NCBI GenBank assembly: GCA_000004985.1
Contig: GG738860.1
Reading direction: 5' to 3' (one strand)
DNA length: 64,000 bases
Origin: Naegleria gruberi
Taxonomy: Eukaryota
Below are positions 9,001-61,290 of this stretch, in pieces. The notes below the pieces were generated by a model that was not told where the DNA came from, searched no databases, and saw only the letters and a list, made by a program, of their open reading frames with translations. A program made the position numbers and the translations under genes. Position 1 is the first letter of the stretch, and each line of letters opens with the position of its first letter.

Positions 9001-12000
9001 NNNNNNNNNNNNNNNNNNNNNNNNNNNNNNNNNNNNNNNNNNNNNNNNNNNNNNNNNNNNNNNNNNNNNNNNNNNNNNNNNNNNNNNNNNNNNNNNNNNN
9101 NNNNNNNNNNNNNNNNNNNNNNNNNNNNNNNNNNNNNNNNNNNNNNNNNNNNNNNNNNNNNNNNNNNNNNNNNNNNNNNNNNNNNNNNNNNNNNNNNNNN
9201 NNNNNNNNNNNNNNNNNNNNNNNNNNNNNNNNNNNNNNNNNNNNNNNNNNNNNNNNNNNNNNNNNNNNNNNNNNNNNNNNNNNNNNNNNNNNNNNNNNNN
9301 NNNNNNNNNNNNNNNNNNNNNNNNNNNNNNNNNNNNNNNNNNNNNNNNNNNNNNNNNNNNNNNNNNNNNNNNNNNNNNNNNNNNNNNNNNNNNNNNNNNN
9401 NNNNNNNNNNNNNNNNNNNNNNNNNNNNNNNNNNNNNNNNNNNNNNNNNNNNNNNNNNNNNNNNNNNNNNNNNNNNNNNNNNNNNNNNNNNNNNNNNNNN
9501 NNNNNNNNNNNNNNNNNNNNNNNNNNNNNNNNNNNNNNNNNNNNNNNNNNNNNNNNNNNNNNNNNNNNNNNNNNNNNNNNNNNNNNNNNNNNNNNNNNNN
9601 NNNNNNNNNNNNNNNNNNNNNNNNNNNNNNNNNNNNNNNNNNNNNNNNNNNNNNNNNNNNNNNNNNNNNNNNNNNNNNNNNNNNNNNNNNNNNNNNNNNN
9701 NNNNNNNNNNNNNNNNNNNNNNNNNNNNNNNNNNNNNNNNNNNNNNNNNNNNNNNNNNNNNNNNNNNNNNNNNNNNNNNNNNNNNNNNNNNNNNNNNNNN
9801 NNNNNNNNNNNNNNNNNNNNNNNNNNNNNNNNNNNNNNNNNNNNNNNNNNNNNNNNNNNNNNNNNNNNNNNNNNNNNNNNNNNNNNNNNNNNNNNNNNNN
9901 NNNNNNNNNNNNNNNNNNNNNNNNNNNNNNNNNNNNNNNNNNNNNNNNNNNNNNNNNNNNNNNNNNNNNNNNNNNNNNNNNNNNNNNNNNNNNNNNNNNN
10001 NNNNNNNNNNNNNNNNNNNNNNNNNNNNNNNNNNNNNNNNNNNNNNNNNNNNNNNNNNNNNNNNNNNNNNNNNNNNNNNNNNNNNNNNNNNNNNNNNNNN
10101 NNNNNNNNNNNNNNNNNNNNNNNNNNNNNNNNNNNNNNNNNNNNNNNNNNNNNNNNNNNNNNNNNNNNNNNNNNNNNNNNNNNNNNNNNNNNNNNNNNNN
10201 NNNNNNNNNNNNNNNNNNNNNNNNNNNNNNNNNNNNNNNNNNNNNNNNNNNNNNNNNNNNNNNNNNNNNNNNNNNNNNNNNNNNNNNNNNNNNNNNNNNN
10301 NNNNNNNNNNNNNNNNNNNNNNNNNNNNNNNNNNNNNNNNNNNNNNNNNNNNNNNNNNNNNNNNNNNNNNNNNNNNNNNNNNNNNNNNNNNNNNNNNNNN
10401 NNNNNNNNNNNNNNNNNNNNNNNNNNNNNNNNNNNNNNNNNNNNNNNNNNNNNNNNNNNNNNNNNNNNNNNNNNNNNNNNNNNNNNNNNNNNNNNNNNNN
10501 NNNNNNNNNNNNNNNNNNNNNNNNNNNNNNNNNNNNNNNNNNNNNNNNNNNNNNNNNNNNNNNNNNNNNNNNNNNNNNNNNNNNNNNNNNNNNNNNNNNN
10601 NNNNNNNNNNNNNNNNNNNNNNNNNNNNNNNNNNNNNNNNNNNNNNNNNNNNNNNNNNNNNNNNNNNNNNNNNNNNNNNNNNNNNNNNNNNNNNNNNNNN
10701 NNNNNNNNNNNNNNNNNNNNNNNNNNNNNNNNNNNNNNNNNNNNNNNNNNNNNNNNNNNNNNNNNNNNNNNNNNNNNNNNNNNNNNNNNNNNNNNNNNNN
10801 NNNNNNNNNNNNNNNNNNNNNNNNNNNNNNNNNNNNNNNNNNNNNNNNNNNNNNNNNNNNNNNNNNNNNNNNNNNNNNNNNNNNNNNNNNNNNNNNNNNN
10901 NNNNNNNNNNNNNNNNNNNNNNNNNNNNNNNNNNNNNNNNNNNNNNNNNNNNNNNNNNNNNNNNNNNNNNNNNNNNNNNNNNNNNNNNNNNNNNNNNNNN
11001 NNNNNNNNNNNNNNNNNNNNNNNNNNNNNNNNNNNNNNNNNNNNNNNNNNNNNNNNNNNNNNNNNNNNNNNNNNNNNNNNNNNNNNNNNNNNNNNNNNNN
11101 NNNNNNNNNNNNNNNNNNNNNNNNNNNNNNNNNNNNNNNNNNNNNNNNNNNNNNNNNNNNNNNNNNNNNNNNNNNNNNNNNNNNNNNNNNNNNNNNNNNN
11201 NNNNNNNNNNNNNNNNNNNNNNNNNNNNNNNNNNNNNNNNNNNNNNNNNNNNNNNNNNNNNNNNNNNNNNNNNNNNNNNNNNNNNNNNNNNNNNNNNNNN
11301 NNNNNNNNNNNNNNNNNNNNNNNNNNNNNNNNNNNNNNNNNNNNNNNNNNNNNNNNNNNNNNNNNNNNNNNNNNNNNNNNNNNNNNNNNNNNNNNNNNNN
11401 NNNNNNNNNNNNNNNNNNNNNNNNNNNNNNNNNNNNNNNNNNNNNNNNNNNNNNNNNNNNNNNNNNNNNNNNNNNNNNNNNNNNNNNNNNNNNNNNNNNN
11501 NNNNNNNNNNNNNNNNNNNNNNNNNNNNNNNNNNNNNNNNNNNNNNNNNNNNNNNNNNNNNNNNNNNNNNNNNNNNNNNNNNNNNNNNNNNNNNNNNNNN
11601 NNNNNNNNNNNNNNNNNNNNNNNNNNNNNNNNNNNNNNNNNNNNNNNNNNNNNNNNNNNNNNNNNNNNNNNNNNNNNNNNNNNNNNNNNNNNNNNNNNNN
11701 NNNNNNNNNNNNNNNNNNNNNNNNNNNNNNNNNNNNNNNNNNNNNNNNNNNNNNNNNNNNNNNNNNNNNNNNNNNNNNNNNNNNNNNNNNNNNNNNNNNN
11801 NNNNNNNNNNNNNNNNNNNNNNNNNNNNNNNNNNNNNNNNNNNNNNNNNNNNNNNNNNNNNNNNNNNNNNNNNNNNNNNNNNNNNNNNNNNNNNNNNNNN
11901 NNNNNNNNNNNNNNNNNNNNNNNNNNNNNNNNNNNNNNNNNNNNNNNNNNNNNNNNNNNNNNNNNNNNNNNNNNNNNNNNNNNNNNNNNNNNNNNNNNNN

Positions 12001-14416
12001 NNNNNNNNNNNNNNNNNNNNNNNNNNNNNNNNNNNNNNNNNNNNNNNNNNNNNNNNNNNNNNNNNNNNNNNNNNNNNNNNNNNNNNNNNNNNNNNNNNNN
12101 NNNNNNNNNNNNNNNNNNNNNNNNNNNNNNNNNNNNNNNNNNNNNNNNNNNNNNNNNNNNNNNNNNNNNNNNNNNNNNNNNNNNNNNNNNNNNNNNNNNN
12201 NNNNNNNNNNNNNNNNNNNNNNNNNNNNNNNNNNNNNNNNNNNNNNNNNNNNNNNNNNNNNNNNNNNNNNNNNNNNNNNNNNNNNNNNNNNNNNNNNNNN
12301 NNNNNNNNNNNNNNNNNNNNNNNNNNNNNNNNNNNNNNNNNNNNNNNNNNNNNNNNNNNNNNNNNNNNNNNNNNNNNNNNNNNNNNNNNNNNNNNNNNNN
12401 NNNNNNNNNNNNNNNNNNNNNNNNNNNNNNNNNNNNNNNNNNNNNNNNNNNNNNNNNNNNNNNNNNNNNNNNNNNNNNNNNNNNNNNNNNNNNNNNNNNN
12501 NNNNNNNNNNNNNNNNNNNNNNNNNNNNNNNNNNNNNNNNNNNNNNNNNNNNNNNNNNNNNNNNNNNNNNNNNNNNNNNNNNNNNNNNNNNNNNNNNNNN
12601 NNNNNNNNNNNNNNNNNNNNNNNNNNNNNNNNNNNNNNNNNNNNNNNNNNNNNNNNNNNNNNNNNNNNNNNNNNNNNNNNNNNNNNNNNNNNNNNNNNNN
12701 NNNNNNNNNNNNNNNNNNNNNNNNNNNNNNNNNNNNNNNNNNNNNNNNNNNNNNNNNNNNNNNNNNNNNNNNNNNNNNNNNNNNNNNNNNNNNNNNNNNN
12801 NNNNNNNNNNNNNNNNNNNNNNNNNNNNNNNNNNNNNNNNNNNNNNNNNNNNNNNNNNNNNNNNNNNNNNNNNNNNNNNNNNNNNNNNNNNNNNNNNNNN
12901 NNNNNNNNNNNNNNNNNNNNNNNNNNNNNNNNNNNNNNNNNNNNNNNNNNNNNNNNNNNNNNNNNNNNNNNNNNNNNNNNNNNNNNNNNNNNNNNNNNNN
13001 NNNNNNNNNNNNNNNNNNNNNNNNNNNNNNNNNNNNNNNNNNNNNNNNNNNNNNNNNNNNNNNNNNNNNNNNNNNNNNNNNNNNNNNNNNNNNNNNNNNN
13101 NNNNNNNNNNNNNNNNNNNNNNNNNNNNNNNNNNNNNNNNNNNNNNNNNNNNNNNNNNNNNNNNNNNNNNNNNNNNNNNNNNNNNNNNNNNNNNNNNNNN
13201 NNNNNNNNNNNNNNNNNNNNNNNNNNNNNNNNNNNNNNNNNNNNNNNNNNNNNNNNNNNNNNNNNNNNNNNNNNNNNNNNNNNNNNNNNNNNNNNNNNNN
13301 NNNNNNNNNNNNNNNNNNNNNNNNNNNNNNNNNNNNNNNNNNNNNNNNNNNNNNNNNNNNNNNNNNNNNNNNNNNNNNNNNNNNNNNNNNNNNNNNNNNN
13401 NNNNNNNNNNNNNNNNNNNNNNNNNNNNNNNNNNNNNNNNNNNNNNNNNNNNNNNNNNNNNNNNNNNNNNNNNNNNNNNNNNNNNNNNNNNNNNNNNNNN
13501 NNNNNNNNNNNNNNNNNNNNNNNNNNNNNNNNNNNNNNNNNNNNNNNNNNNNNNNNNNNNNNNNNNNNNNNNNNNNNNNNNNNNNNNNNNNNNNNNNNNN
13601 NNNNNNNNNNNNNNNNNNNNNNNNNNNNNNNNNNNNNNNNNNNNNNNNNNNNNNNNNNNNNNNNNNNNNNNNNNNNNNNNNNNNNNNNNNNNNNNNNNNN
13701 NNNNNNNNNNNNNNNNNNNNNNNNNNNNNNNNNNNNNNNNNNNNNNNNNNNNNNNNNNNNNNNNNNNNNNNNNNNNNNNNNNNNNNNNNNNNNNNNNNNN
13801 NNNNNNNNNNNNNNNNNNNNNNNNNNNNNNNNNNNNNNNNNNNNNNNNNNNNNNNNNNNNNNNNNNNNNNNNNNNNNNNNNNNNNNNNNNNNNNNNNNNN
13901 NNNNNNNNNNNNNNNNNNNNNNNNNNNNNNNNNNNNNNNNNNNNNNNNNNNNNNNNNNNNNNNNNNNNNNNNNNNNNNNNNNNNNNNNNNNNNNNNNNNN
14001 NNNNNNNNNNNNNNNNNNNNNNNNNNNNNNNNNNNNNNNNNNNNNNNNNNNNNNNNNNNNNNNNNNNNNNNNNNNNNNNNNNNNNNNNNNNNNNNNNNNN
14101 NNNNNNNNNNNNNNNNNNNNNNNNNNNNNNNNNNNNNNNNNNNNNNNNNNNNNNNNNNNNNNNNNNNNNNNNNNNNNNNNNNNNNNNNNNNNNNNNNNNN
14201 NNNNNNNNNNNNNNNNNNNNNNNNNNNNNNNNNNNNNNNNNNNNNNNNNNNNNNNNNNNNNNNNNNNNNNNNNNNNNNNNNNNNNNNNNNNNNNNNNNNN
14301 NNNNNNNNNNNNNNNNNNNNNNNNNNNNNNNNNNNNNNNNNNNNNNNNNNNNNNNNNNNNNNNNNNNNNNNNNNNNNNNNNNNNNNNNNNNNNNNNNNNN
14401 NNNNNNNNNNNNNNNN
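1..14416. other. Run of N (assembly gap or masked sequence); no information
   Basis: 14416 consecutive 'n' characters; first real base is 14417. Confidence 0.99.
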
Positions 14417-14850
14417 TGTTGTTCATTGTTCAATTGATGAGAAATATTAGAGGAAGATGAAGATAATTTCTTTGGAGTGAGCATACTTTTCAATGATGAA
14501 AGACTTTTCTTTCTTTCTTTTAGGGTATTATTCGAAGAAGAGGAAGAATTGGACGAATTGTTGTTGGACGAATTACTAGACGAAATGTTAGCAGCATTGG
14601 CTAAATTATTATTTAATTCAGTTAATAGTGCAGAACTACTGGTAATGGTGAGGGTTCCTCGCTTTGTTGTTGTTGTTGTTGTATTTGATTCTTGTGATGA
14701 GCTGTCAGTGTTGGCATTTGACATTGATGAAACGGATTGGGATCTACGATAGGCATCATTTTCGTTTGGTGATGGTGTTGTAGGTGATGTTGGTTTTTCT
14801 GGAATTGTTATTGGTTGAGAAGACGATGACAGCGACTTTCGTTTAAACAT
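14417..14850 (-). CDS. 5' part of a Ser/Thr/Asn-rich protein of unknown function; continues into the N gap
   Basis: Minus-strand ATG at 14850-14848 (reverse complement of the 'cat' at the end of 'gtttaaacat'). The frame reads MFKRKSLSSSSQPITIPEKPTSPTTPSPNENDAYRRSQSVSSMSNANTDSSSQESNTTTTTTKRGTL... and stays open for about 144 codons to the gap edge. The + strand ORF 14477..14752 is its antisense shadow. Confidence 0.4.
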
Positions 14851-15153: not shown

Positions 15154-18100
15154 ATGCAACAAAAGGAGGAATTTATTCATCATTTGGATGGCTTGATGAA
15201 TGTGCAGAATTTGCACGATCAGGGAATGACTCCACAAGATGTTGATTTATTATTGTGGAAGAGAGGTAAAAAATCAAGTGAATTGGTGCATGGCAAGTTG
15301 GAGGAGATGAAGATGGGTGAACAAGAGATTGGGCAATTGATTGATCAATTGTTGGAATCCAAGTCCGATGATCAAGTTAGGGAGAATAGAATTGGTGTTA
15401 TTTTGGCAATTGTTTATGAATTGAGAAGTGAAAAGTTGATTCAATTAATTACTGATAGAAATACTCCTATTATGATTGTTGATTTGATTGTTAAGAATTT
15501 GACAAGAATTTTGAAAGATCAAGATGAATTTATGAAATTTTTCAATGAGAAATATGATAAATTGAATGATCATGTTAGAATTAGAATTGAAAGATGTGTC
15601 AGAAAGACGAAACCAAAGTGGATTCCACAATTGTTGAGTACATTGTTGGAAAGAAAGGCTCCTTCAAGAGAATGCATGTGTACTTTGGGACATTTAGAAT
15701 CAAATCCAGAAAATGACATTTTAATTGTTAAGGTTCTTAAAGATCTTAAAATAGAATTAAATGACATGATGTTCAGTCCATTATTTAGAAAACATACAAA
15801 GGCAATGAGTACTTTTTTGAAAGATAGAATTGAAGAAATATGTGGAAACAATCCTCAGAAAGCAGCTCAATACTTTAACTCGCAAAAATTACCAGTGTTT
15901 CTACTCAAACAGTTTCCTAACTTTGCCTGGGAATTGATTTCAAAGTATTTGGTCAACCCATTCTTGGAAAACAAGTGTCAGAAATTGTATTTGAACAAGT
16001 TTTGGTACATTCCAACATTTTACACTCATCCATCTTTTGTAGAGACGACTGAAAAAATTATTTCACTCACCAAAGATCCTTCCCTCATTCATGCACGTCA
16101 ATTGGTTAACAGACTAACTATCAAACAATTAGCCAAAATATTGTTTGCAATTATTGAAAGTTTTGGATATTCTAGATCAACCCATGCCAAACACTTTATT
16201 GGGATTCTACTCTTTAACAAAGCAAAGCATTATGCCAATAGAAATGTTCTATTCGAAAATATGTATTCACTTGGTTTGAATAAGGAAAAATTCATTAATT
16301 GGATTGTCAATAATTGCCAAACAGATCAAATACCAATGATTTTGAATATTCTACCATGGGATATTGCATCTGCAGTTGCTGAAAGAATATATCAATTGAG
16401 AAAGAAAGAGGTTTTCAAAAATTCTTCTGAGGAGAGTATTTATTGGAAATACTTTTTCAATTTGGATGATAATGATCAAAGAAACCAATTCAAAAATGCA
16501 TGCTCGAATCCAGTTGGTGAAGTAAGAGCTTGTGTTTTGAGAGATTTACTCTTGTGTTCGCTCATGTCTGGAAAGCAAGTGAGAGAAACTTTAGAATTTA
16601 TTGAAACCAGAATGAAAAACGATACAGAGGTTCAATCCAGATTATTCAATCAATATAATAGAGACAACTCAATCGATAGCTTTTTGGGCATTCATTTCAA
16701 AGATCATTCTGAACTAATTCTCAATATTTTAAGCAAGGTAAACTCGTACTCTGCTTCTTCAATTTATCAGGCTCTTATTTCTCAAAATATGACTAATGTA
16801 GAAATTTTGAAGAGAATTATTATTTCAATGGAGAAGACTTCGAATTCTTCGTCTAGAGCAGTTAGTTTCAGAAAGGAAGTTCACCAAGAGTTGATGAATC
16901 ATTTCAAGCCAACTTTGGAGGAAATGGCAAGAAATGGCTCATATGAATTGATTAGTTTCTTATTCGAGTCAATTGAAAATCCAGTTAAATATGATTATAT
17001 CAACGAGTTTGTTGCTAATTACATTGAGAATGTAATCCCTGAAACCACTTCTAATATTCCTCCAAAGCTTCTCAAAGGACTTGTTGAGGTTTATCTCAAA
17101 TCGGATCCAAAGAATATTTCCAAGAGAGTTAAAGTCATTCTTGACAAGTATCCTCTTTCATTTCAATTATCTGTTGTACAGAGAGCACTCTTAGATAAGA
17201 GAAATATTCCAGATCCAGAACTTGTCTCCAAATTCTTACCAGATCACGTTCTCGAATTTGAAGAGTTGAACTTGTCATTGAGTAGTCAATCTCCACTTGT
17301 ATGGAAACCTGAAGTATTGAGTTCTCTCCATCTCGAAACATTTGCTCCTAAACAATTGTTACAATCCTTCTCTACCTATTACAAGGATTATCTGTTTAAG
17401 GTTTGTAGAACTGGAGAAATTAGTAATTTCTACTGTTCTAGGTATTCAGAGTTTTCAGAGAGGAAACAAACTCTACTAATCCTTCCAAAGCTTCTCTATG
17501 AAAGACCAATGTTGGATGACTTGGTTCAATTCATTGATGAGAAGATTCTCTCTAACATTTCCTTGGAGAATGTGGTTCCAACCATGGGTAGAGGAAGAGG
17601 CAGAGGCAGAGGCAGAGGAGGAGGTAGAATGAGTGCACCAAGAAGTGTACCAAGACAACCTCGTGCTATTGAATTGAATGTAGAAGATGCTGCTGTTAAA
17701 TCTTTGGCCAAACTTGTGAGAACTAATTCTCAACATCCACTTGAACATTTAGATTGGATTCTCGAAAATATTACCTCTGAAAATGTAATGTATTTCTACT
17801 CGGCTCTGAACAGATTATCAAAACATGAACCAGGATTCGTAAGGAAATTTATTGAAATTTTAAAAGGAAAGTTTAGTTCAGGACCAAAGGAGAATTTCAC
17901 AATTTCAATTCAAAAGGTTTTCATTTGCTTTTTCAAGCAACATGCAGAATTTTCTGGTAACCATCCTCTCGTCAATGAAATTGCTGACTTTTTGTTACAT
18001 CTTTGGGATTTGAAACTTCATAAGGATGTTCAAGTTGCAATTGTTCAAACAGCCAAAAAAATCATTTCCAAAGCAAAAGAATATGATCTCTATGCAAAAC

Positions 18101-19110
18101 TTGAAAGATTGTTCAAGGATGCTGCCACTCATGAATATCAAGCCGTTGTGGAAGAGCTGGCATTGTATGTTCCAACTTTGAATGAGAAAATAGCTCAAGA
18201 CTTTTTCACATTGAGTTTGCAAGCATTGCAACATAAGGATTCTGGTAATTCTCAATCAAAAGTATGGCACCGTATCTCTCAAGCAGTTCTTAGTCTTGAT
18301 ATGAGAGCTTTTAGTAATTCATTTGATGCAATGTCTCTTTTCAATTCCTATCTCATTGATGCCTTGCTTTTATTCGGTGCTTCTAAGGACACTTCCGTTA
18401 CTGATATTGCTATTGCTACTATTACAACTCAATTATTGGAAAACACAAAGCAAGTGAGCGAACTGTTATTGGAAAAGATTGTAAAACCACTGTTCACAGA
18501 TGACAAACTCAAGACACTTAATCTAGAATTTGATAGACCAATTTCTACAAGATTACAATATTTGGCAAAGCAAATTGCAACAACAATAACTGGAACTTAT
18601 TCAACCATTTCAGAAGAAACCTTGAACGATATTCAACAGTTAATCTTGGATTGGATTGGATTGACTAAAACATTGGAAGAAAGAATTTCACACGCCTGCC
18701 TTGTTTCCAGTATTACAAATTGGTCAAATAAGGATTCGATTATCGAAAACAGTATCAAGAGAGTCGCTAATTTATTTGTTGACATGCCAGATTTGAAAAT
18801 TGCTGGTTTGACAACTTTATGTCACAATTCCAGTCTTTTCATTCTCACAAATGAACACTCTGACAGCACCACCCAAGCTGTTTCTCATATTCTCCAAAAC
18901 CATAGTCAATACTCTCAAGATGAATTAATTCTAGCAGTCGCTCTTCTTAAATTAATTCCAGTCAATCCAGATATTGAAAATCTAATGAAAATCATCAACA
19001 ATCTTACACCAACCTATCCACTTCTTGCCATCACATACTTTATCAAAACTGAAAGTGATCAAGATAAAGGAAAGAATCAACGATTCCCTTTCAGAAGACA
19101 TGGTTATTAA
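15154..19110 (+). CDS. Large (1318 aa) conserved-looking protein of unknown function with an internal RG/RGG box; apparently a single exon
   Basis: Uninterrupted 3957-nt ORF in AT-rich DNA with an AT-rich leader before the ATG at 15154. Contains MGRGRGRGRGRGGGRMSAPRSVPRQPR near residues 810-835. The remainder is non-repetitive with helical-repeat-like composition. I do not recognise the family. Confidence 0.7.
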   Translation: MQQKEEFIHHLDGLMNVQNLHDQGMTPQDVDLLLWKRGKKSSELVHGKLEEMKMGEQEIGQLIDQLLESKSDDQVRENRIGVILAIVYELRSEKLIQLITDRNTPIMIVDLIVKNLTRILKDQDEFMKFFNEKYDKLNDHVRIRIERCVRKTKPKWIPQLLSTLLERKAPSRECMCTLGHLESNPENDILIVKVLKDLKIELNDMMFSPLFRKHTKAMSTFLKDRIEEICGNNPQKAAQYFNSQKLPVFLLKQFPNFAWELISKYLVNPFLENKCQKLYLNKFWYIPTFYTHPSFVETTEKIISLTKDPSLIHARQLVNRLTIKQLAKILFAIIESFGYSRSTHAKHFIGILLFNKAKHYANRNVLFENMYSLGLNKEKFINWIVNNCQTDQIPMILNILPWDIASAVAERIYQLRKKEVFKNSSEESIYWKYFFNLDDNDQRNQFKNACSNPVGEVRACVLRDLLLCSLMSGKQVRETLEFIETRMKNDTEVQSRLFNQYNRDNSIDSFLGIHFKDHSELILNILSKVNSYSASSIYQALISQNMTNVEILKRIIISMEKTSNSSSRAVSFRKEVHQELMNHFKPTLEEMARNGSYELISFLFESIENPVKYDYINEFVANYIENVIPETTSNIPPKLLKGLVEVYLKSDPKNISKRVKVILDKYPLSFQLSVVQRALLDKRNIPDPELVSKFLPDHVLEFEELNLSLSSQSPLVWKPEVLSSLHLETFAPKQLLQSFSTYYKDYLFKVCRTGEISNFYCSRYSEFSERKQTLLILPKLLYERPMLDDLVQFIDEKILSNISLENVVPTMGRGRGRGRGRGGGRMSAPRSVPRQPRAIELNVEDAAVKSLAKLVRTNSQHPLEHLDWILENITSENVMYFYSALNRLSKHEPGFVRKFIEILKGKFSSGPKENFTISIQKVFICFFKQHAEFSGNHPLVNEIADFLLHLWDLKLHKDVQVAIVQTAKKIISKAKEYDLYAKLERLFKDAATHEYQAVVEELALYVPTLNEKIAQDFFTLSLQALQHKDSGNSQSKVWHRISQAVLSLDMRAFSNSFDAMSLFNSYLIDALLLFGASKDTSVTDIAIATITTQLLENTKQVSELLLEKIVKPLFTDDKLKTLNLEFDRPISTRLQYLAKQIATTITGTYSTISEETLNDIQQLILDWIGLTKTLEERISHACLVSSITNWSNKDSIIENSIKRVANLFVDMPDLKIAGLTTLCHNSSLFILTNEHSDSTTQAVSHILQNHSQYSQDELILAVALLKLIPVNPDIENLMKIINNLTPTYPLLAITYFIKTESDQDKGKNQRFPFRRHGY

Positions 19111-48428: not shown

Positions 48429-50015
48429 TTAACAAATATTTAATATAAATATGTGGTTAATATAAAAGAGGTAAAAGTTATTGAAAGTATGCTTAAAAAA
48501 ACTTACAACTTGATTTTGCAAACTGGAGAGGGCTGCAGGATCACAGTAAATAGCATCATGCTTAATGAGAGAATCTATTGAGACTATGGTTGGTTCATCT
48601 ATCTTTCCAGTTGTTGAAATATTTTCGATATTTCCTACACTGGTTGGGAAAATATCCTTAATGATCTTTTTGAATGAAGGATAAATGATTGTTTCAATGT
48701 AAATTTCTGTTGGTTGCCTAACACAAACACCGGTACACATTTCAAAAAGCAAATATCCAAAAGATTCCAAAATAGTTCTTGCATTATTGTTAAATGAATT
48801 TCTAGCAAAGAGTAAAAATTGATCTTCCAATGAAGTTAGTTTGCAGTGGTAGTGAACTCCATTTTCATTGTTTGATTTTTCAATTAGAATATTCTTGGAT
48901 GAGATGTGAGTGTATTCAAATCCAATTTGTGAAAGAGACTTTAAAGCACAAAGTATTTGTCCACTAAATTGACTAATAATGTCAGGATCCATAGTATTTT
49001 CTCTCCTTAATGTTTCAATAAGTTGAGATAGGGTTCCAACTGTATTATGCGAAAGATTGAAAAGAGAGTAGCACCTTCCTTGTCCCAATGAAAAATCGAT
49101 ATGAGAAACTGGCATAATGTATGGAGATAAATTTCCAATATTTGACATCAATTGAATAAAAGACCTTCTCATTGTGGCGTCATTAATCATTACTACTGAT
49201 TGACTGGAACAATTTGTATAAACCATCAGTCCAAAGTTGACTCCCACTGCTGTATTTGATTGTGATGAATTTGATTGTGGTAATGTCACAAAATTAGTAG
49301 AACTGTTAGCACTGTTTGAGCTTGAATTATCATCAAAATGTATATTCTTTGATCCTCTATTCTTAATAGTTTGACAATAAGCTAAGGTTTTGTAAGATGA
49401 AGCATTTAAGGTAAGCAATAATTGAAAGTAACTTGTAACAAAATCTTTCAGAGATTCCTTCTTCTCAATGAGTTCATAATCTGTTGGACGTAAGACGGTT
49501 CTAACTTGATACATTAAATCAATATGACCCAGCACTTTCTTTTGATATAAGCTCACATAATCGGTAATTTGTCTATTCAAATTATTATTCTTATACTTTT
49601 GAATGAGATTTGAAAAACCTTCCTTCAAAATATTTCCACTCGAATCATCTGTTGAAGATTTGTGATGATAATAAGAATTGGACAAGGGAATTGTCTCCTC
49701 ATCATCTGCTTCATTATTAATATTTGATGATTTCACTTTTCTAGTTGAAGAAATTCCAAAAACTTGTAAAACCGATTCCGAATTAATACCCGATTCATAA
49801 TATGAAGCCTCTCTTCTTCTCCTAGTTATTATTCTATAAAGAACCAATCCAACACAGGCAAAAAACACCAACACGACCACAATCATCGAGATGATAAATT
49901 CGGGCTTTAAAATAAATAAAACTTCATCTGTTTCCGCATTAGAAGTTGCCATCGTTGAAGTGGAGTCCACCATTAAGTTATTACTGTTCATTACTTTTAG
50001 AATTTGATCTAACAT
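48429..50015 (-). CDS. Type-I transmembrane protein with a cytoplasmic degenerate protein-kinase-like (pseudokinase) domain (528 aa)
   Basis: TM helix IISMIVVVLVFFACVGLVLY followed by the stop-transfer RRRREA. The C-terminal region has kinase-like subdomains (...HISSKNILIEKSNNENGVHYHCKLTSLEDQ...ESFGYLLFEMCTGVCV...) but no HRD catalytic Asp and no glycine-loop/VAIK motifs. Confidence 0.5.
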   Translation of the reverse strand: MLDQILKVMNSNNLMVDSTSTMATSNAETDEVLFILKPEFIISMIVVVLVFFACVGLVLYRIITRRRREASYYESGINSESVLQVFGISSTRKVKSSNINNEADDEETIPLSNSYYHHKSSTDDSSGNILKEGFSNLIQKYKNNNLNRQITDYVSLYQKKVLGHIDLMYQVRTVLRPTDYELIEKKESLKDFVTSYFQLLLTLNASSYKTLAYCQTIKNRGSKNIHFDDNSSSNSANSSTNFVTLPQSNSSQSNTAVGVNFGLMVYTNCSSQSVVMINDATMRRSFIQLMSNIGNLSPYIMPVSHIDFSLGQGRCYSLFNLSHNTVGTLSQLIETLRRENTMDPDIISQFSGQILCALKSLSQIGFEYTHISSKNILIEKSNNENGVHYHCKLTSLEDQFLLFARNSFNNNARTILESFGYLLFEMCTGVCVRQPTEIYIETIIYPSFKKIIKDIFPTSVGNIENISTTGKIDEPTIVSIDSLIKHDAIYCDPAALSSLQNQVVSFFKHTFNNFYLFYINHIFILNIC

Positions 50016-50324
50016 GATGATGAATTAAATGTGTAGATTTTTTTGTTGAGTTTTTTCGTAAGGTTTGATGGGGAATGTGGCTGAAAGAACCTTGGGAGTG
50101 AATTTTGGAAAGTACTCTTGGAATGGAAAGAATAATTTTCCAATAAAATTTAATATCTCGGAGTGTATTGTAATATGCAATAATCAGATGAAAAGAAGTG
50201 GCGGAAGCAGGTTGGATCTCTCTTTCAAATAATAGTAAGTGGTAGTAGAATAATTAAATTTGTTTTCATTTTGGCGGTAAAAGAAGATTGGCGCCAATAT
50301 TACGTACAAATAATATTCAAAAAA

Positions 50325-51794
50325 ATGTCTCAAATAGAATTGAACATGTCTGCAACACCTTCATTCTCGGGCAACTCTCAGGTGCCACAATCCGAGTTTG
50401 ATCTGGTCAACATGACGGATGAACAACAGAGAGAGTTGGCTGTAGAATTGATTAGAAACACGCCAGAATATAAGGCAGCTTGGGAGCTGGAATTATGGAA
50501 AAAACGAGAAAAAACTGTCTACAAAAAACAACTTGAAGAGAAGGAAAAACAACACTTGAAGAATGTGGAAGCAAAATTAAGAGAGGAATTTAGTAAATAT
50601 GAAAAACAAATCTTGGAACAAAAAGAAATTCTTAAAAGTAAGGAACAACAATACAATCAAGTGTTGGAAGAGATGAATGCAAGAGAGAAACAATTGGTAG
50701 GAGTTGAACTAGAGCTGAGGAGAAGAAAAACAGAGCTAGAAACTGATTATCAAAGAAAAATCGAGCATATGGAACATGTGATTAAAATGGAGAAGGAATC
50801 TTTTCAACAGCGACTGCAATTGGAAACCATTAAAAATCAAGAGCTTCAGAAGAGAATAGACCAACAATTATCTCACGATGTGATGGAACTCAATGAGAGA
50901 ATAACAAAGCTTCAAGTAGAAAATGAATCCCTTGAATCAAAACTTCATCAAGCCACTAATTCCAAACAAAATTACAAAATCCAATGGAAAAAAGTATCTG
51001 AAGAACTGATTAGAACAAAGAAGAAACAAGAATCAGAATTGAGAAAATTACAGCAAAAGATAATTGCTCTCCAAACTTTACAGACCTCTCCATTGACTCC
51101 TTCACAACCACCTCCAATGAATCCATTCTATCCTCACCCAAATATGCCTCAAAATTACCAGTATCCAAATCAAATGAATCCTCACTCTCCATTCTATCCA
51201 TATCCTCCAATGCAATCCCCATTCGATCCGAATAATATGCAACAAAATCCTCAGAATTTCATTCCTCCAAATCAGCAGCAACAAAAGCAAGATGCCGATG
51301 AAATTGGTTCTCTCAAAAAGATGCTTGCCGATCTGATTAAGAAAGAAACAGAAGACAAGAAGGAAGATAGCAAACTCAATACTTCGACATCGAGTTCAGG
51401 ATCTACCTCTTCAACATCCTCAGGAGAGAGCAATCGTAAGGGTAGTAAGAGAACTTCTCCATCGTCTTCCCCTCCCACTGTAAAAACAGCAAACTCCACC
51501 ACAAAGAAAACCTCACCTCCTCGTCAACAACAAACTAAACAGGAAGTTTTTGCCTATCCATCGCCTCATCTCGATAACAGTAGATACGAAGAAGAACCAT
51601 CCTTAAACGAAACCCAAAACGATATTTCTGTTGAGGCTCACAATTTTGCAAATCATGACCAGAACGAGAATGATGAAAGAAGCAGAGAGTTTAAACGATT
51701 ACTCCGAGAGAAATCCAGACTTTTGAAATCTGGAATTTACGATTCAAAGAGTGATATTATTCTAGAAATTGAAAAGAAACTTCAATCTTTGTAA
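50325..51794 (+). CDS. Coiled-coil protein with a Pro/Gln/Tyr-rich segment and a Ser-rich tail (about 489 aa)
   Basis: Long heptad-like region (KQLEEKEKQHLKNVEAKLREEFSKYEKQILEQKEILKSKEQQYNQVLEEMNAREKQLVGVELELRRRKTELE...). Then PPMNPFYPHPNMPQNYQYPNQMNPHSPFYPYPPMQSPFDPNNMQQNPQNF. First ATG in frame at 50325; the ORF track starts at an upstream TTG. Confidence 0.55.
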   Translation: MSQIELNMSATPSFSGNSQVPQSEFDLVNMTDEQQRELAVELIRNTPEYKAAWELELWKKREKTVYKKQLEEKEKQHLKNVEAKLREEFSKYEKQILEQKEILKSKEQQYNQVLEEMNAREKQLVGVELELRRRKTELETDYQRKIEHMEHVIKMEKESFQQRLQLETIKNQELQKRIDQQLSHDVMELNERITKLQVENESLESKLHQATNSKQNYKIQWKKVSEELIRTKKKQESELRKLQQKIIALQTLQTSPLTPSQPPPMNPFYPHPNMPQNYQYPNQMNPHSPFYPYPPMQSPFDPNNMQQNPQNFIPPNQQQQKQDADEIGSLKKMLADLIKKETEDKKEDSKLNTSTSSSGSTSSTSSGESNRKGSKRTSPSSSPPTVKTANSTTKKTSPPRQQQTKQEVFAYPSPHLDNSRYEEEPSLNETQNDISVEAHNFANHDQNENDERSREFKRLLREKSRLLKSGIYDSKSDIILEIEKKLQSL

Positions 51795-55572: not shown

Positions 55573-56700
55573 ATGAGCGATAAAGAATCCACACCAAGTC
55601 CATCACCATTATCATCAAATAATTCTCCACCTGTTGCCACAACAACTACCACAACAACAACATTACCAAGTGGTCCTAAACAAGATAATACCAAGAGTTT
55701 TCTTGTCCAATCATCACCACTTGTTTCCTTCATATCGGGAGCAGTTTATGGATGTACCTCCATTGCTGTAGGACAACCTCTCGATACAATTAAAACACTC
55801 ATGCAATCTAGTGCTACTATTAATCAAAATAATGCAACAACATTGGGTGTGATTAAATCAATTTATAAGAAGAATGGTTTTATGGGATTTTATCGTGGAT
55901 CTCTTCCACCTTTGTTTACTGCTTCAGTGTTGAGAAGTTTGCAATTTGGTGGATATGCAATGGCATTACAATATATTATGGAAAATAATGTGTTTTCTGA
56001 TAAGGATTTCAGAAAGGAAAATTTACATGTTTTGGAGGAGAAACCATTTAGTTTGCATCCTGAAATGTTTGCTGCTGGCTGTTTTGGAGGTGCTGCTAGA
56101 GCCATTGTTGGTATGTTTCAATTTTCATGGTCATGTGTTTATTAATAATATTCGAATTATTTCCAAAACATTTTAATAGAAACCCCTGTCGAATATATGA
56201 AAGTCAGATTCCAAACTGAACAACCTTGGAAATTTACTGAATTATATCGTGGATTTACTGCAACACTGTTACGTAACATGTTCCTTTTGGGCAGTTTCTT
56301 TGTTTTTGTTGACTTTTTCACTCAAGAATATAGAAATTTACAAGTGAGACAACATTTGAAATCTCTTGCATCTGATGAAGAAAGAGAAAAGAGCAGAGGT
56401 CAATATTTCGATTTTGCAAAATTGAGTCCATTCTTTACAGGTGGTGTTTGTGCAACTTTGGCTTGGTGGTTAGTTTTCCCATTGGATGTTATTAAGAGTC
56501 AAATTCAAGCTATGAAACCTGATGAACAATTGGGCCTTATGCAAAGAATGAAACATGTTTCAAACACTTTGGGCTTCAGAGGATTTTTCAGAGGAATTGT
56601 ACCTGCTAGTGCTAGATCCATGTTGGCAAATGGTGTTTCAATGATTGCCTTTGCTTATGTTTCATCTCATCTCATTCAAAAATTGGAAAAGAAGGAATAA
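55573..56700 (+). CDS. Mitochondrial carrier family (SLC25) protein; 2 exons
   Basis: Exon 1 55573..56110 (...GAARAIV + g | GTATGT), 69-nt intron, exon 2 56180..56700. Three carrier repeats with signatures PLDTIKTLMQ, PVEYMKVRFQ and PLDVIKSQIQ. The N-terminal extension is Thr/Ser-rich. Confidence 0.85.
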
Positions 56701-56737: not shown

Positions 56738-59700
56738 TTACTGTTTGAGTTTCTTTTGAGCTGGCTGTTGTTCAAGTGTTTGCTGACAAGTACTGGAAGA
56801 ACGTTTTGTAATCTTTTGCCATTTTCTTGAAACATGATCCATGCAAAAGTATATTGTTACAATTTCATCATTGAGCTCTTCTGAGTGAATTACATATTGT
56901 TCCTGGCAGTTTCGATTTTCTCCCATGAAAAATGTAAATATCTGTTTTCTTGTTTCCTGTGTGATTTGATTGCATCCCCTTAATAAATTATCCAGATAGT
57001 TGTTGACACGAGAATAATTTTCAGTATAATCATTTGTTAATACCAATTGAGGAGGTTGATAGGTTGAAAGTGAGGCTTGTTGTAAAGTTATTTGTTGCTG
57101 AAGTGAGTTAAGATATTTCAATACCTTTTGAACGTGAGATAAATTCTTCTTTAGTTCATTTTGAGGAGAGCTAATCTTGGTGATGGTTATTTTTCTATAT
57201 TCCTTTCTAATATCAAGGAAAGAAGGGTTACAGAGCTTTTCAATATTCGAAATAACATGATCTCTCTGACCTTGTGTGTTTCTCATTTCAAAAGTTACTC
57301 TATTGGGATCTAACAAGTAGGTTCTCACAGACTCACAGGTGCTACACGGACTAGAACCGACAAACATTCCAGAATTCCTACAATTTGATTTTAAAGGTTC
57401 TATTTTCCAACTCCATGGCAACTGTTGGATATTTTGAATGTGAGTCGATACTATTCCTAATGCACCAGTTATGAGTAATGATAAAGAAGACCCATTCAAT
57501 AGAGAAGCTCTAAAATTACTAGTTTCCAACCATTTAAGTAGTGGAATGAGCACAGATTCCACTCTATCAAATGTGTCGCATCTATTCAATATACTTGAGA
57601 CTATTATGTTAAAATTATCAGGAATACACTCTCTACAAAACATGTATATAAATGAAATGCACATATTTGATGTTAGCTGTGGTTGAGAGGTAAATTCCAT
57701 CCAAATTGAATTTCTCAAAATATCATATGCATATTTGCATTCCTCATTTGTGAAATTGTTTTCACAATAGGTTGCAATGACCATAGCTTGCTCATAAAAC
57801 TTGTTGGTGAGCTCAGGAAGGCACACTTGCATCTTTTCTTGTAATAATTGCTTATTCACTTTTGAGGAGTTCTCAAAGAATATTCCATAACAATTAGTAA
57901 AACACGAAATATTATCCAATAATGATAGTAAAACATCTTCCAAATGTAGAGTATTGTGCAGTGAACAATAAGGAAGTAATAATTGAAAAACTGTCGCATC
58001 TGCCCTTTTCAAAATTGCTGAAATGGCATTTTCTGTGAATGGCATTTGTCTTTCAATCATGTATCTCAAAATGGTGTGAAGATAAGTATTAGGGAGGTGT
58101 TGAGTGGCCAATCTTTCAAAAATCTTATCAAAGAACTCTTTGATAAAAACATTTCCATTAACATCCTTGGAGAATTCATTGATAACAAACTGAACGTGGT
58201 CTATTCTGTCCTGTATTGTAGACTGGAACGCTTTTTGGACGAACTTTTCAATAAATTGATCCTTCAATTGGTTCATTGGGAAGATTCCAACAATGGCACT
58301 CCAACCAAAATCAGATAAACTTGGATGAGCATCAAGATAACATTTCAAAACCTCATAATTTCGAAGTTGAATTATATTCCTAACCATTAAATCTTCTGAA
58401 AGCTTATTTGCACATTTAGGTATAAATTGCAAAAGTTGAGTGAGTGCATTAGGTTTCAGACTTGTTGCTTCCATAAATAATTGTTGGCAAATGTAATCCA
58501 CATCCTGGGTGTGAGCGTAATTGTTGAAGAGGGATGTAGCAAACCTCCTAGAAACAATAACTATGCATCCGTTTCTATACCACTTATCTAAATTGGTTCC
58601 CTCATTACCTGTGTGCTCAATTCGAGAATTTGCAAAGTGTTGATCCTCGAGTCTTTCGTATGGAATTATATTAGAAAGCATCATATTTGATGGCAAACTG
58701 GAAAATGAAGACCCACTAGTTGTTTTCACATTTTTCAAGTTATATCGAACAGTTGGTTCACATATTAGATCACTTCTGACCTCTATTTCTGTCTCAGAAT
58801 CAGAACCACAATCATCACCATCTCCATAATAATCATAGTGATCTCCATCCAATTGTCCACTAACTTCTTTTTCAAATATTCCAATAAATAAATGGAATAA
58901 TAAATGTTCTTGATTGAGTTCAGATAAGAATGTGTACAGCATTTGATCTTTCCCTTTCAGATTCGAAGCTGATAAACCTTCCATAGTATATTTGTGTTCT
59001 AGTAACCAAACAATGAAGGGAGGTTCGGTTTTTTCCCATCTTTCAGATAGGTTTATGAATGATTTCTCCAATTTACTCCTCATATTAAATGAGGGGATGG
59101 AATCCAAAGCCCCATTATAACAAACATTATAAATTAGACATAATCTGTATCCACTCGAAACTCTATTCACCTTATGTTCACAATCACAGAAAAATCCAGT
59201 GTATGAAACCTTATAACTTGAATTCTTTGAAAAATCATAGATTTTTTCATTCCCAGAATGTTTTACAATTAGCTCTCCACCAGAATACACTGAAGGAAGA
59301 TGAATTACCAAAGTTGCAAACATACCACTCTCCTTCTCTGTATCTCTGTGATAATCAAAGTGTCCATCAGTTTCATAGAGAAGCAGTTTGTAAAGACTAT
59401 GAGTAATTCGTTTGTGTTTTGGAATACCAAGTCCATTTCGTAACTCATTTTCAACAATATTTCCCACAAAACCATTCCATTTAGGATTAGAAATAATGAA
59501 TTGGGATGGCTCAAGTTGCCAACTTTTTCTCACAGTTTCATCAATAAGTGTCAGCTCTCCCTTCCCATAAGGTGCCTTTGATGCCACTGAAATGATGTCT
59601 TGAGCTTGATTTAAATTAGTAATAGGGAGAGAGCAATGTTTCAATTCAACAGTTGCTCCACTTTCATTGGATGGTACACAAATTTGTAATCCAGGAAGTC

Positions 59701-60154
59701 CTGGAATATTCTCAACTTCGCCTCCACATGAAAATTCTCCAACACATACATCTGTTTCTGAGCTAGTCAATAAATCAGCCATTTCCTTTGTTGTTTCTGA
59801 ATATCCAATAACCAACTCATCAGGAAGTATCAATGAGTGGCGTTGATATGGTATCGTGAACATAATTGGACTTGTGGGTTTAGGCCTATGAGAATTATCA
59901 AACACAAATGATGACTCAAAAGATTCAGACATTATATTCGGAAGAGGAAATTCCATTGGTTTGAGGGTAATCAGGTTGAAGGTGTTCGTAGATGATGACC
60001 CCTGACTATTATGACTAATTAAATTGTTCAATAATTGTGATGTTGAGAGAATGTCATTGGTACTACTACCAATAGTACTACTAATACCATCACCAGAATT
60101 AATGGTAGTTATATTAGGAGTAGTGGTATTTCCGAGTAGGTTATTAAATTGCAT
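56738..60154 (-). CDS. Large (1138 aa) protein containing a 2-oxoglutarate/Fe(II)-dependent oxygenase (prolyl-hydroxylase-like) domain near residues about 240-340; remainder unknown
   Basis: ...ITHSLYKLLLYETDGHFDYHRDTEKESGMFATLVIHLPSVYSGGELIVKHSG...YTGFFCDCEHKVNRVSSGYRLCLIYNV carries the H-x-D ... H facial triad and the R-x-S 2OG-binding motif in the order typical of P4H/EGLN/Ofd-type dioxygenases. Intronless. Its stop codon is 37 nt from the stop of the convergent mitochondrial carrier gene. Confidence 0.7.
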   Translation of the reverse strand: MQFNNLLGNTTTPNITTINSGDGISSTIGSSTNDILSTSQLLNNLISHNSQGSSSTNTFNLITLKPMEFPLPNIMSESFESSFVFDNSHRPKPTSPIMFTIPYQRHSLILPDELVIGYSETTKEMADLLTSSETDVCVGEFSCGGEVENIPGLPGLQICVPSNESGATVELKHCSLPITNLNQAQDIISVASKAPYGKGELTLIDETVRKSWQLEPSQFIISNPKWNGFVGNIVENELRNGLGIPKHKRITHSLYKLLLYETDGHFDYHRDTEKESGMFATLVIHLPSVYSGGELIVKHSGNEKIYDFSKNSSYKVSYTGFFCDCEHKVNRVSSGYRLCLIYNVCYNGALDSIPSFNMRSKLEKSFINLSERWEKTEPPFIVWLLEHKYTMEGLSASNLKGKDQMLYTFLSELNQEHLLFHLFIGIFEKEVSGQLDGDHYDYYGDGDDCGSDSETEIEVRSDLICEPTVRYNLKNVKTTSGSSFSSLPSNMMLSNIIPYERLEDQHFANSRIEHTGNEGTNLDKWYRNGCIVIVSRRFATSLFNNYAHTQDVDYICQQLFMEATSLKPNALTQLLQFIPKCANKLSEDLMVRNIIQLRNYEVLKCYLDAHPSLSDFGWSAIVGIFPMNQLKDQFIEKFVQKAFQSTIQDRIDHVQFVINEFSKDVNGNVFIKEFFDKIFERLATQHLPNTYLHTILRYMIERQMPFTENAISAILKRADATVFQLLLPYCSLHNTLHLEDVLLSLLDNISCFTNCYGIFFENSSKVNKQLLQEKMQVCLPELTNKFYEQAMVIATYCENNFTNEECKYAYDILRNSIWMEFTSQPQLTSNMCISFIYMFCRECIPDNFNIIVSSILNRCDTFDRVESVLIPLLKWLETSNFRASLLNGSSLSLLITGALGIVSTHIQNIQQLPWSWKIEPLKSNCRNSGMFVGSSPCSTCESVRTYLLDPNRVTFEMRNTQGQRDHVISNIEKLCNPSFLDIRKEYRKITITKISSPQNELKKNLSHVQKVLKYLNSLQQQITLQQASLSTYQPPQLVLTNDYTENYSRVNNYLDNLLRGCNQITQETRKQIFTFFMGENRNCQEQYVIHSEELNDEIVTIYFCMDHVSRKWQKITKRSSSTCQQTLEQQPAQKKLKQ

Positions 60155-60537: not shown

Positions 60538-61290
60538 ATGGCCTGGAGATGTTCTGGACAAAGTAATGCCGAACTGATTGCCAATCTGTTTAAATCCAAT
60601 ATCATTTCAAGTAATAGTGTCTCGAGGGCAATGTCTCGTACCGATCGTGCACTGTTTTGCAGGAGTGATCATCGAGATTATGCCTACTTGGATCAACCTC
60701 TTCCGATCGGAAATGATGTGACAATATCTGCTCCTCATATGCATGCCTATTGTTTGGAATTGTTGGAAGATCATTTGAAACCAGGAAATAGAGCAATGGA
60801 TGTTGGAAGTGGTAGTGGCTATCTTGTTGCTACTATGGCTGAAATGATGGCTCCACAAGTTGAACATGTGGTTGAAGGAACTAAAATTGTTGGCATTGAA
60901 TATTTGCAATCAATCTATTTATTTGGAAAGGAAAATATTGAAAAGGTTTGTTTGGTAATTATTTTGAATTTTGTAAATTAATTTTGAAAACAGTATCAAA
61001 AAACAAAGGATTTAATGAATCAAGGTATTATTGAAATGATTAAAGGAGATGGATGGAAAGGCTATGCTCAAGGAGGTCCATATCATGCTATTCATGTTGG
61101 AGCAGCTGCATCCACACTTCCTCATGCACTTGTTGAGCAATTGGCAAATGGTGGCAGATTGATCATTCCTGTTGGTGATATAGATCAACACTTGATGGTA
61201 ATTGATAAGGATATCAATGGCAAAGTCACCCAAAAGAAAGTAATGGGAGTGAGATATGTTCCTCTTGTCAACCCAACAAATTGTAAATAA
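60538..61290 (+). CDS. Protein-L-isoaspartate (D-aspartate) O-methyltransferase (PIMT/PCMT); 2 exons
   Basis: Exon 1 60538..60945 (...AYLDQPLPIGNDVTISAPHMHAYCLELL...AMDVGSGSGYLVATMA...ENIEK | GTTTGT), 48-nt intron, exon 2 60994..61290 (...GDGWKGYAQGGPYHAIHVGAAASTLPHALVEQLANGGRLIIPVG...). SAM-binding motifs I, II and III are all present. Confidence 0.9.

Follow-up and report, generated by a model that had tools for sequence, protein, structure and literature searches.

What kind of enzyme is encoded when an oxygenase core occupies only a small part of a very long protein? A 64,000-nucleotide stretch of contig GG738860.1 of Naegleria gruberi (assembly GCA_000004985.1; hereafter the window) carries, on its minus strand at 56738..60154, one unbroken open reading frame (ORF) of 1138 codons. 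A sequence-only reading had recognized in its product a prolyl-hydroxylase-like 2-oxoglutarate (2OG)/Fe(II) oxygenase core, embedded in about 800 aa of unknown sequence. Our analysis indicates that the protein is probably a soluble, intracellular and catalytically competent Fe(II)/2OG oxygenase resembling the prolyl hydroxylase domain enzymes (PHDs) and prolyl 4-hydroxylases (P4Hs), and most likely hydroxylates proteins, probably on prolyl residues. Its family, which is large and conserved but unnamed and uncharacterized, is common to bacteria and scattered eukaryotes, and within it the Naegleria gene is a typical member, not a unique chimera, whose disordered additions are lineage-specific.

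The oxygenase core is the only part of the protein with a Pfam match. PF13640 (2OG-FeII_Oxy_3) aligns to residues 257-342 with 21.8 bits (E 3.8e-4), which is below the gathering score of 27; the same domain was matched in 54 of 56 relatives at E<=0.01 (best 8.7e-10), and no other Pfam domain was found in the 56 full-length members. Alignments of 56 and 87 sequences show no variation at L258, Y260, F266, H269, D271, E273, P287, and G292, and conservation of at least 90% at D324, H327, G335, and R337. This conservation therefore assigns the iron triad to H269-R-D271 and H327 and the 2OG-binding basic residue to R337, which lies in the motif SGYRLCL, 10 residues past the distal histidine; in P4H-type enzymes, the basic residue that binds the 2OG C5-carboxylate follows the distal histidine by ~9-11 residues. 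The double-stranded beta-helix (DSBH) fold, the HxD...H triad, and the C5-carboxylate-binding basic residue that mark the 2OG-Fe(II) oxygenase superfamily were all found, and a catalytic site of the P4H/PHD type appears to be intact, as judged from the alignments. The earlier reading had misplaced three of the four catalytic positions: its "H-F-D" corresponds to H265-F266-D267, four residues early and with H265 and D267 in variable columns, and its "R-V-S" clamp to R331, also a variable column, with R337 conserved in its stead.

The presence of an oxygenase core of the prolyl hydroxylase type was itself borne out by structure as well as by the Pfam matches of the relatives. In a full-length AlphaFold2 model built from 87 sequences (mean predicted local distance difference test (pLDDT) 70.8, about 90+ over residues 120-545), the catalytic domain is structurally closest to the PHD/EGLN-PPHD-PhyA group. 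Structure comparison gave values of 14.7 for Pseudomonas putida PPHD in complex with EF-Tu, 14.6 for the Trichoplax HIF-PHD, and 13.3 for Dictyostelium PhyA, followed by PiuC (12.7), a viral collagen P4H (12.6), Tpa1 (11.4), OGFOD1 (11.2), AlkB (11.1), PHD2 (11.0), and Naegleria's own TET-like enzyme (9.1). Foldseek, which had been proposed as a check of the oxygenase fold, returned 78 matches at E<=1e-3, and those listed were all PPHD, PhyA, PHD2, or PiuC-type structures. Sequence identity to the compared structures is only 13-17%, and neither phmmer with the Naegleria protein nor hmmsearch with the family profile retrieved an oxygenase at E<=1 among all PDB sequences. Fold and motif of the protein are PHD-like, but at the level of sequence it belongs to no characterized subfamily. 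Fold rank and motif spacing make a prolyl residue the leading candidate for the modified side chain.

Each of the known enzyme groups with a similar core differs from the Naegleria protein in its overall architecture, and to PPHD, PHD, and PhyA the resemblance is one of fold only. The EF-Tu prolyl 4-hydroxylase PPHD of Pseudomonas (PDB 4iw3/4j25) is a single domain of ~200 aa without a second domain, helical region, or zinc module, and although the folds are alike, no sequence similarity to it is detectable by hidden Markov model comparison. PHDs such as EGLN1/PHD2, the Trichoplax PHD, and the Skp1 P4H PhyA of Dictyostelium and Toxoplasma measure 200-430 aa. The MYND finger of PHD2 is N-terminal and its motif is unrelated to the C-terminal module described below, and no MYND Pfam domain occurs in the 56 family members. 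To our knowledge, HIF is absent from the hosts of this family. In the alpha subunit of collagen P4H and in its viral and algal counterparts (vCPH, Cr-P4H), the helical domain is N-terminal, an order that is reversed in Naegleria; collagen P4H is also a secretory, endoplasmic reticulum-located enzyme with PDI as its beta subunit, whereas no signal-like or transmembrane segment was found in the Naegleria protein, and neither it nor the 56 members match the P4Ha_N or TPR Pfam domains. The uS12 prolyl hydroxylases Tpa1, Ofd1, and OGFOD1 have a degenerate DSBH (Ofd1_CTDD) as their second domain and no helical/zinc C-terminus; the corresponding PF10637 was matched by none of the 56 members. PiuC/YbiX (NCBIfam PRK05467) was rejected at 19.6 bits against a cutoff of 143; PiuC is ~225 aa long and linked to iron-uptake genes, a linkage not seen at 80 loci of the Naegleria family. 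The TET/JBP nucleic-acid dioxygenases, including Naegleria NgTet1, were likewise not the closest match. Toxoplasma PHYb combines a C-terminal catalytic domain with a D2 domain and is restricted to alveolates (PMC6437050), and kinship to it was rejected on architecture.

The long extension turned out to be a family trait. A search of 5.8 billion proteins yielded 81 relatives of about 640-1440 aa. Bacterial relatives come from Haliscomenobacter, Neochlamydia, Chitinophagaceae, Leptospiraceae, Gammaproteobacteria, and many metagenomic sequences, and eukaryotic ones from Willaertia, Naegleria lovaniensis, Klebsormidium, Parachlorella, Selaginella, Gracilaria, a chytrid, ascomycetes, and two insects. 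Nearly all relatives have BLAST matches to residues ~139-540 of the Naegleria protein; in some the match reaches ~700, and a second, weak match falls at 830-1035. Multiple alignment revealed that the whole architecture is common to the relatives, with an oxygenase core, a second domain, a helical region, a compact module, and a long helix; the Naegleria protein carries every invariant residue, all four conserved blocks in order, and the CCCH module. A profile restricted to the C-terminal half (residues 545-1000), scored against 1.84 billion cluster representatives, matched 3,210 clusters at E<=1e-3, of which 1,930 reached E<=1e-10. Full-length representatives are about 740-860 aa long, with the match at ~400-750 in the same layout as in Naegleria, and the shorter matches are probably truncated metagenomic ORFs. 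The same fusion of modules, whose occurrence elsewhere the earlier reading had left to be checked, is thus present in bacteria, in Willaertia and N. lovaniensis, and in other eukaryotes. The idea of a single, unusually large enzyme with a private extension is not supported, as about 740-860 aa is the normal family size and residues ~120-1040 are family-conserved, and the 800 aa of unknown sequence are not idiosyncratic but a conserved architecture shared between bacteria and eukaryotes. Searches of the literature, both for the locus tag and by topic, turned up no paper that names the tag or describes the family.

Table 1. Positions of the oxygenase gene and of its protein features in the window. 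Residue numbers refer to the 1138-aa protein.
Feature	Window positions	Strand	Basis or remark
Complete single-exon oxygenase gene, 1138 codons + stop	56738..60154	minus	
Residues 1-113: S/T/N-rich, predicted-disordered N-terminal extension	59816..60154	minus	pLDDT below 50; composition
Residues 120-348: N-terminal helix, small beta unit, catalytic double-stranded beta-helix (PHD/P4H-like)	59111..59797	minus	
H269-R-D271: invariant HxD iron ligands	59342..59350	minus	56- and 87-sequence alignments
H327 (distal iron ligand) to R337 (predicted 2OG C5-carboxylate binder, H+10)	59144..59176	minus	both >=90% conserved
Residues 349-545: second alpha/beta domain, motifs LLEHxYT, LKGxD, TGNEG	58520..59110	minus	
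Residues 546-912: all-helical, solenoid-like, sequence non-repetitive	57419..58519	minus	secondary structure, pLDDT 40-89
Residues 913-993: compact alpha-beta-alpha-beta-beta module	57176..57418	minus	
C925, C937, C940, H966: probable CCCH zinc ligands	57257..57382	minus	near-invariant R964 adjacent
Residues 994-1040: long basic helix after module, family-wide	57035..57175	minus	helix 997-1031
Residues 1041-1138: Naegleria-specific C-terminal tail, partly helical	56741..57034	minus	mostly low confidence

The positions of the modules behind the core are listed in Table 1. The oxygenase-associated block had been thought to end at ~360, but alignments and BLAST extend it to ~545. H387, Y389, K400, D403, G516, and N517 in the second domain are invariant or nearly so, with a conservation equal to that of the iron ligands; the last of its three motifs reads in full TGNEGxxxxxWY, and its predicted secondary structure comprises ~5 strands and two helices. 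No relative was found among PDB sequences or, in a scan of 21 second-domain fragments, in Pfam. The protein is not a double DSBH of the Tpa1/Ofd1 type, because profile-profile comparison shows the second domain to be unrelated to the DSBH (hhalign probability 0.5%), and their secondary structures are unlike. This domain may pack onto the catalytic domain and help to shape the substrate pocket. The helical region that follows is conserved in the family but divergent, and it is longer in Naegleria than in bacteria. Its AlphaFold2 model is poor at 700-830, and a PDB-sequence profile search and structure comparison gave just weak adaptin/HEAT-like or designed-repeat matches. No HEAT-like internal repeats were detectable in its sequence, in agreement with the earlier description of the extension as non-repetitive.

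The compact C-terminal module has the signature P.DW...C.C..C..L..FL.DP...F....R.HL...D...GSP.TLV.TK. Among 204 instances of the module, the columns of C925, C937, C940, and H966 contain C-C-C-H in 178, lack all four residues in 14, and are mixed in 12, an all-or-none pattern as a tetrahedral metal (zinc) site would predict; the four residues probably form such a site. When residues 835-1045 were modeled separately (pLDDT 85.5; predicted template modeling score 0.70), the alpha-beta-alpha-beta-beta arrangement was followed by a 34-residue helix. Against all PDB sequences, the module gave no meaningful match, only weak helical-repeat or chance ones. In Naegleria, an 11-residue insert (RNSGMFVGSSP; residues 925-937, window 57344-57382, minus strand) separates the first two putative ligands, so that their spacing is C-x11-C-x2-C versus C-x-C-x2-C in the family; this loop has lower model confidence, and the reach of C925 to the putative zinc site is provisional. 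The statement that the extension holds no second known domain therefore stands insofar as none previously described was detectable, but it contains conserved unnamed modules, namely the second domain and the probable CCCH zinc module. Similarly, the impression of a Cys-rich extension is correct for the protein as a whole (2.8% cysteine versus 1.07% in its neighbors), but just five of its 32 cysteines are conserved (C325, C339, and three putative zinc ligands).

The charge of this C-terminal part bears on what the enzyme might modify. Net charge per 100 aa is +3.1 for the module and +7.7 for the following helix (mean over 199 relatives), as opposed to -2.7 for the acidic whole proteins. An active 2OG oxygenase could act on a non-protein substrate, be it a small metabolite or the base or ribose of a nucleic acid, and its basic zinc module and helix would then bind DNA, RNA, or a nucleotide-like ligand. 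The basic module, the invariant candidate pocket residues, and the positions of PiuC and AlkB close behind the leading structures are consistent with this alternative, which we consider unlikely though a serious possibility. A protein hydroxylase, which we favor, would hydroxylate a protein side chain, and its helical region and zinc module would recruit the macromolecular substrate or a partner; the TPR-like domain by which collagen P4H alpha binds peptide and the MYND zinc finger of PHD2 are precedents for recruitment modules.

Several parts of the Naegleria protein are absent from its relatives: residues 1-113 (BLAST matches begin at ~104-139), an acidic insert at ~440-466 within the second domain, the 11-residue insert in the cysteine module, the extra length of the helical region, and the last ~100 residues. 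The disordered N-terminus, the acidic insert, and the C-terminal ~100 aa may be lineage-specific additions. As the N-terminal 113 and C-terminal ~100 residues lack homologues and are predicted to be disordered, the start codon and the tail are provisional. These features, together with the short introns that do occur in neighboring Naegleria genes, are what could be expected if the long ORF were an annotation or assembly artefact, be it two mis-joined genes, an oxygenase with a non-coding run-on, or a gene with an unnoticed intron. Yet there is not a single stop across 1138 codons in a 34% GC genome, the conserved motifs from residue 139 to ~1030 all lie in a single frame, and the same domain order is found end to end in intron-free bacterial genes. 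Mis-joined genes are excluded for residues ~120-1040, because these bacterial single genes align full length, from the catalytic domain through the C-terminal module, which refutes the gene pair that the sequence-only reading had named as a possible pitfall. An exact-sequence look-up identified the ORF as XP_002678876.1 / EFC46132.1 / NAEGRDRAFT_48033, a "predicted protein" of 1138 aa on a 537-kb scaffold, so the ORF agrees with the public single-exon gene model. An artefact is thus extremely improbable. The plus-strand reading of the same interval was ruled out, being filled with stops.

The genomic setting of the Naegleria gene is eukaryotic. The window is AT-rich (GC about 34%) and the neighbors encode an RGS protein, a mitochondrial carrier, a PCMT methyltransferase, Sin1, and a BRCT protein; the RGS, carrier, and PCMT genes are each broken by one short intron. 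In the carrier gene (55573-56700, plus strand), a short GTATGT...TAATAG intron lies at about 56111-56179, and the PCMT (isoaspartyl methyltransferase) gene (60538-61290, plus strand) is interrupted at about 60981/61015. Between the end of the oxygenase gene and the convergent carrier gene lie 37 bp, and a 383-bp intergenic region separates the oxygenase gene from the divergent PCMT gene. Positions 1-14416 of the window are all N (masked or padded), and real bases start at 14417. Three further large ORFs at 15154-19110 (plus), 48429-50015 (minus), and 50271-51794 (plus), of 1318, 528, and 507 aa, had no Pfam match at E<=1e-3; the first is the N. gruberi "predicted protein" NAEGRDRAFT_65944.

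A quick neighbor-joining tree, computed from distances over the catalytic region and without support values, unites the Naegleria protein in one clade with its N. lovaniensis counterpart, the two Willaertia paralogues, and environmental sequences, indicating that the gene is resident in Heterolobosea and not a contamination. In the same tree, the homologue of the amoeba-symbiont chlamydia Neochlamydia sp. S13 (P0037; locus L002, 8001-10220) groups beside eukaryotic (chytrid/MMETSP) sequences and not with other bacteria, a placement that hints at host-symbiont gene transfer. Family members in the assemblies of Bemisia tabaci (P0041) and Bradysia coprophila (P0045) lie on multi-megabase contigs, and the Bemisia sequence clusters with those of ascomycetes; horizontal transfer or assembly contamination could explain the insect members. 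Selaginella has at least eight paralogues (P0068-P0076), one of which (P0075) is fused to a GT8 glycosyltransferase domain (PF01501+PF13640), a single case that fits hydroxylation followed by O-glycosylation. Further variants are a 1436-aa Klebsormidium protein with two oxygenase cores (P0001) and a metagenomic fragment in which the oxygenase is paired with a subtilase domain (P0107).

A scan of prokaryotes with one genome per species recovered at least 578 loci, and the best 80 of these are mostly from Planctomycetota, with others from Polyangiaceae, Methylococcales, Thioploca, Nitrospirales, Holophagales, and Kuenenia. In all six bacterial loci inspected, the gene is monocistronic with unrelated neighbors. 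When 959 flanking ORFs from the best 80 loci were clustered, no neighbor family occurred in more than eight loci, so the family gene is a self-contained single-gene unit. A conserved operon partner was rejected, since the recurrent clusters turned out to be an antisense artefact and families expanded in planctomycetes, whose distance and orientation vary, and a DinB_2/DUF1801 association at two planctomycete loci did not generalize over the 80. Toxin-antitoxin genes were found near the family gene in four of the six inspected loci, suggesting an accessory-genome location; the types at loci L001, L002/L003, L006, and L007 comprise AbiEii, DUF4160/DUF2442, ParE/ParD, YafQ, Zeta toxin, and PIN/PhdYeFM.

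Such neighbors (AbiEii, ParE/ParD/YafQ, Zeta, PIN/PhdYeFM) could point to a stand-alone effector in biological conflict, with a C-terminal half that would serve as sensor of an invader or of stress signals and an oxygenase that would modify a target in the host or the invader. A role in defence would account for the patchy distribution and the accessory-genome location, and the organization as a single-gene unit, the lineage-specific expansions (the Selaginella paralogues and several in Heterolobosea), and apparent inter-domain transfers agree with it. However, PADLOC gives only a generic match to the 2OG core, far below cutoff, and no defence-system protein, no defence gene recurs across the 80 loci, and the family is very common on Planctomycetota chromosomes beside ordinary metabolic genes. 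In addition, none of the nuclease, NTPase, or STAND modules usual in such effectors was found by Pfam in the 56 members. We therefore regard a defence function as very unlikely and retain the protein hydroxylase as the preferred interpretation. Since the gene needs no linked partner and has passed between bacteria and eukaryotes, its target is probably a molecule present in all hosts.

Animals and several protists sense oxygen mainly through protein hydroxylases of the PHD type, and with each branch newly assigned (HIF, Skp1, EF-Tu, uS12) another regulatory pathway has come to light. On a bolder view, which we hold to be decidedly unlikely, the family could be a fourth, ancient and unrecognized branch of PHD-type, oxygen- and 2OG-dependent protein hydroxylation, self-contained in a single polypeptide whose helical scaffold, CCCH zinc module, and invariant second domain would dock onto a universally conserved target. 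This target would be, for example, a component of the translation machinery, and the same operation would take place in Planctomycetes, chlamydial symbionts, amoebae, algae, and fungi. The chemistry and the core fold are familiar; the very widespread family, marked by an invariant second domain and a probable CCCH module, is uncharacterized and has no name. The 2OG-oxygenase field thereby gains a concrete orphan family whose catalytic site is complete, whose three accessory modules are conserved, and which offers defined residues for mutation (H269/D271/H327/R337; H387/Y389/K400/D403/N517; C925/C937/C940/H966). The family comprises thousands of clusters and occurs in at least 578 species of prokaryotes as well as in several lineages of eukaryotes.

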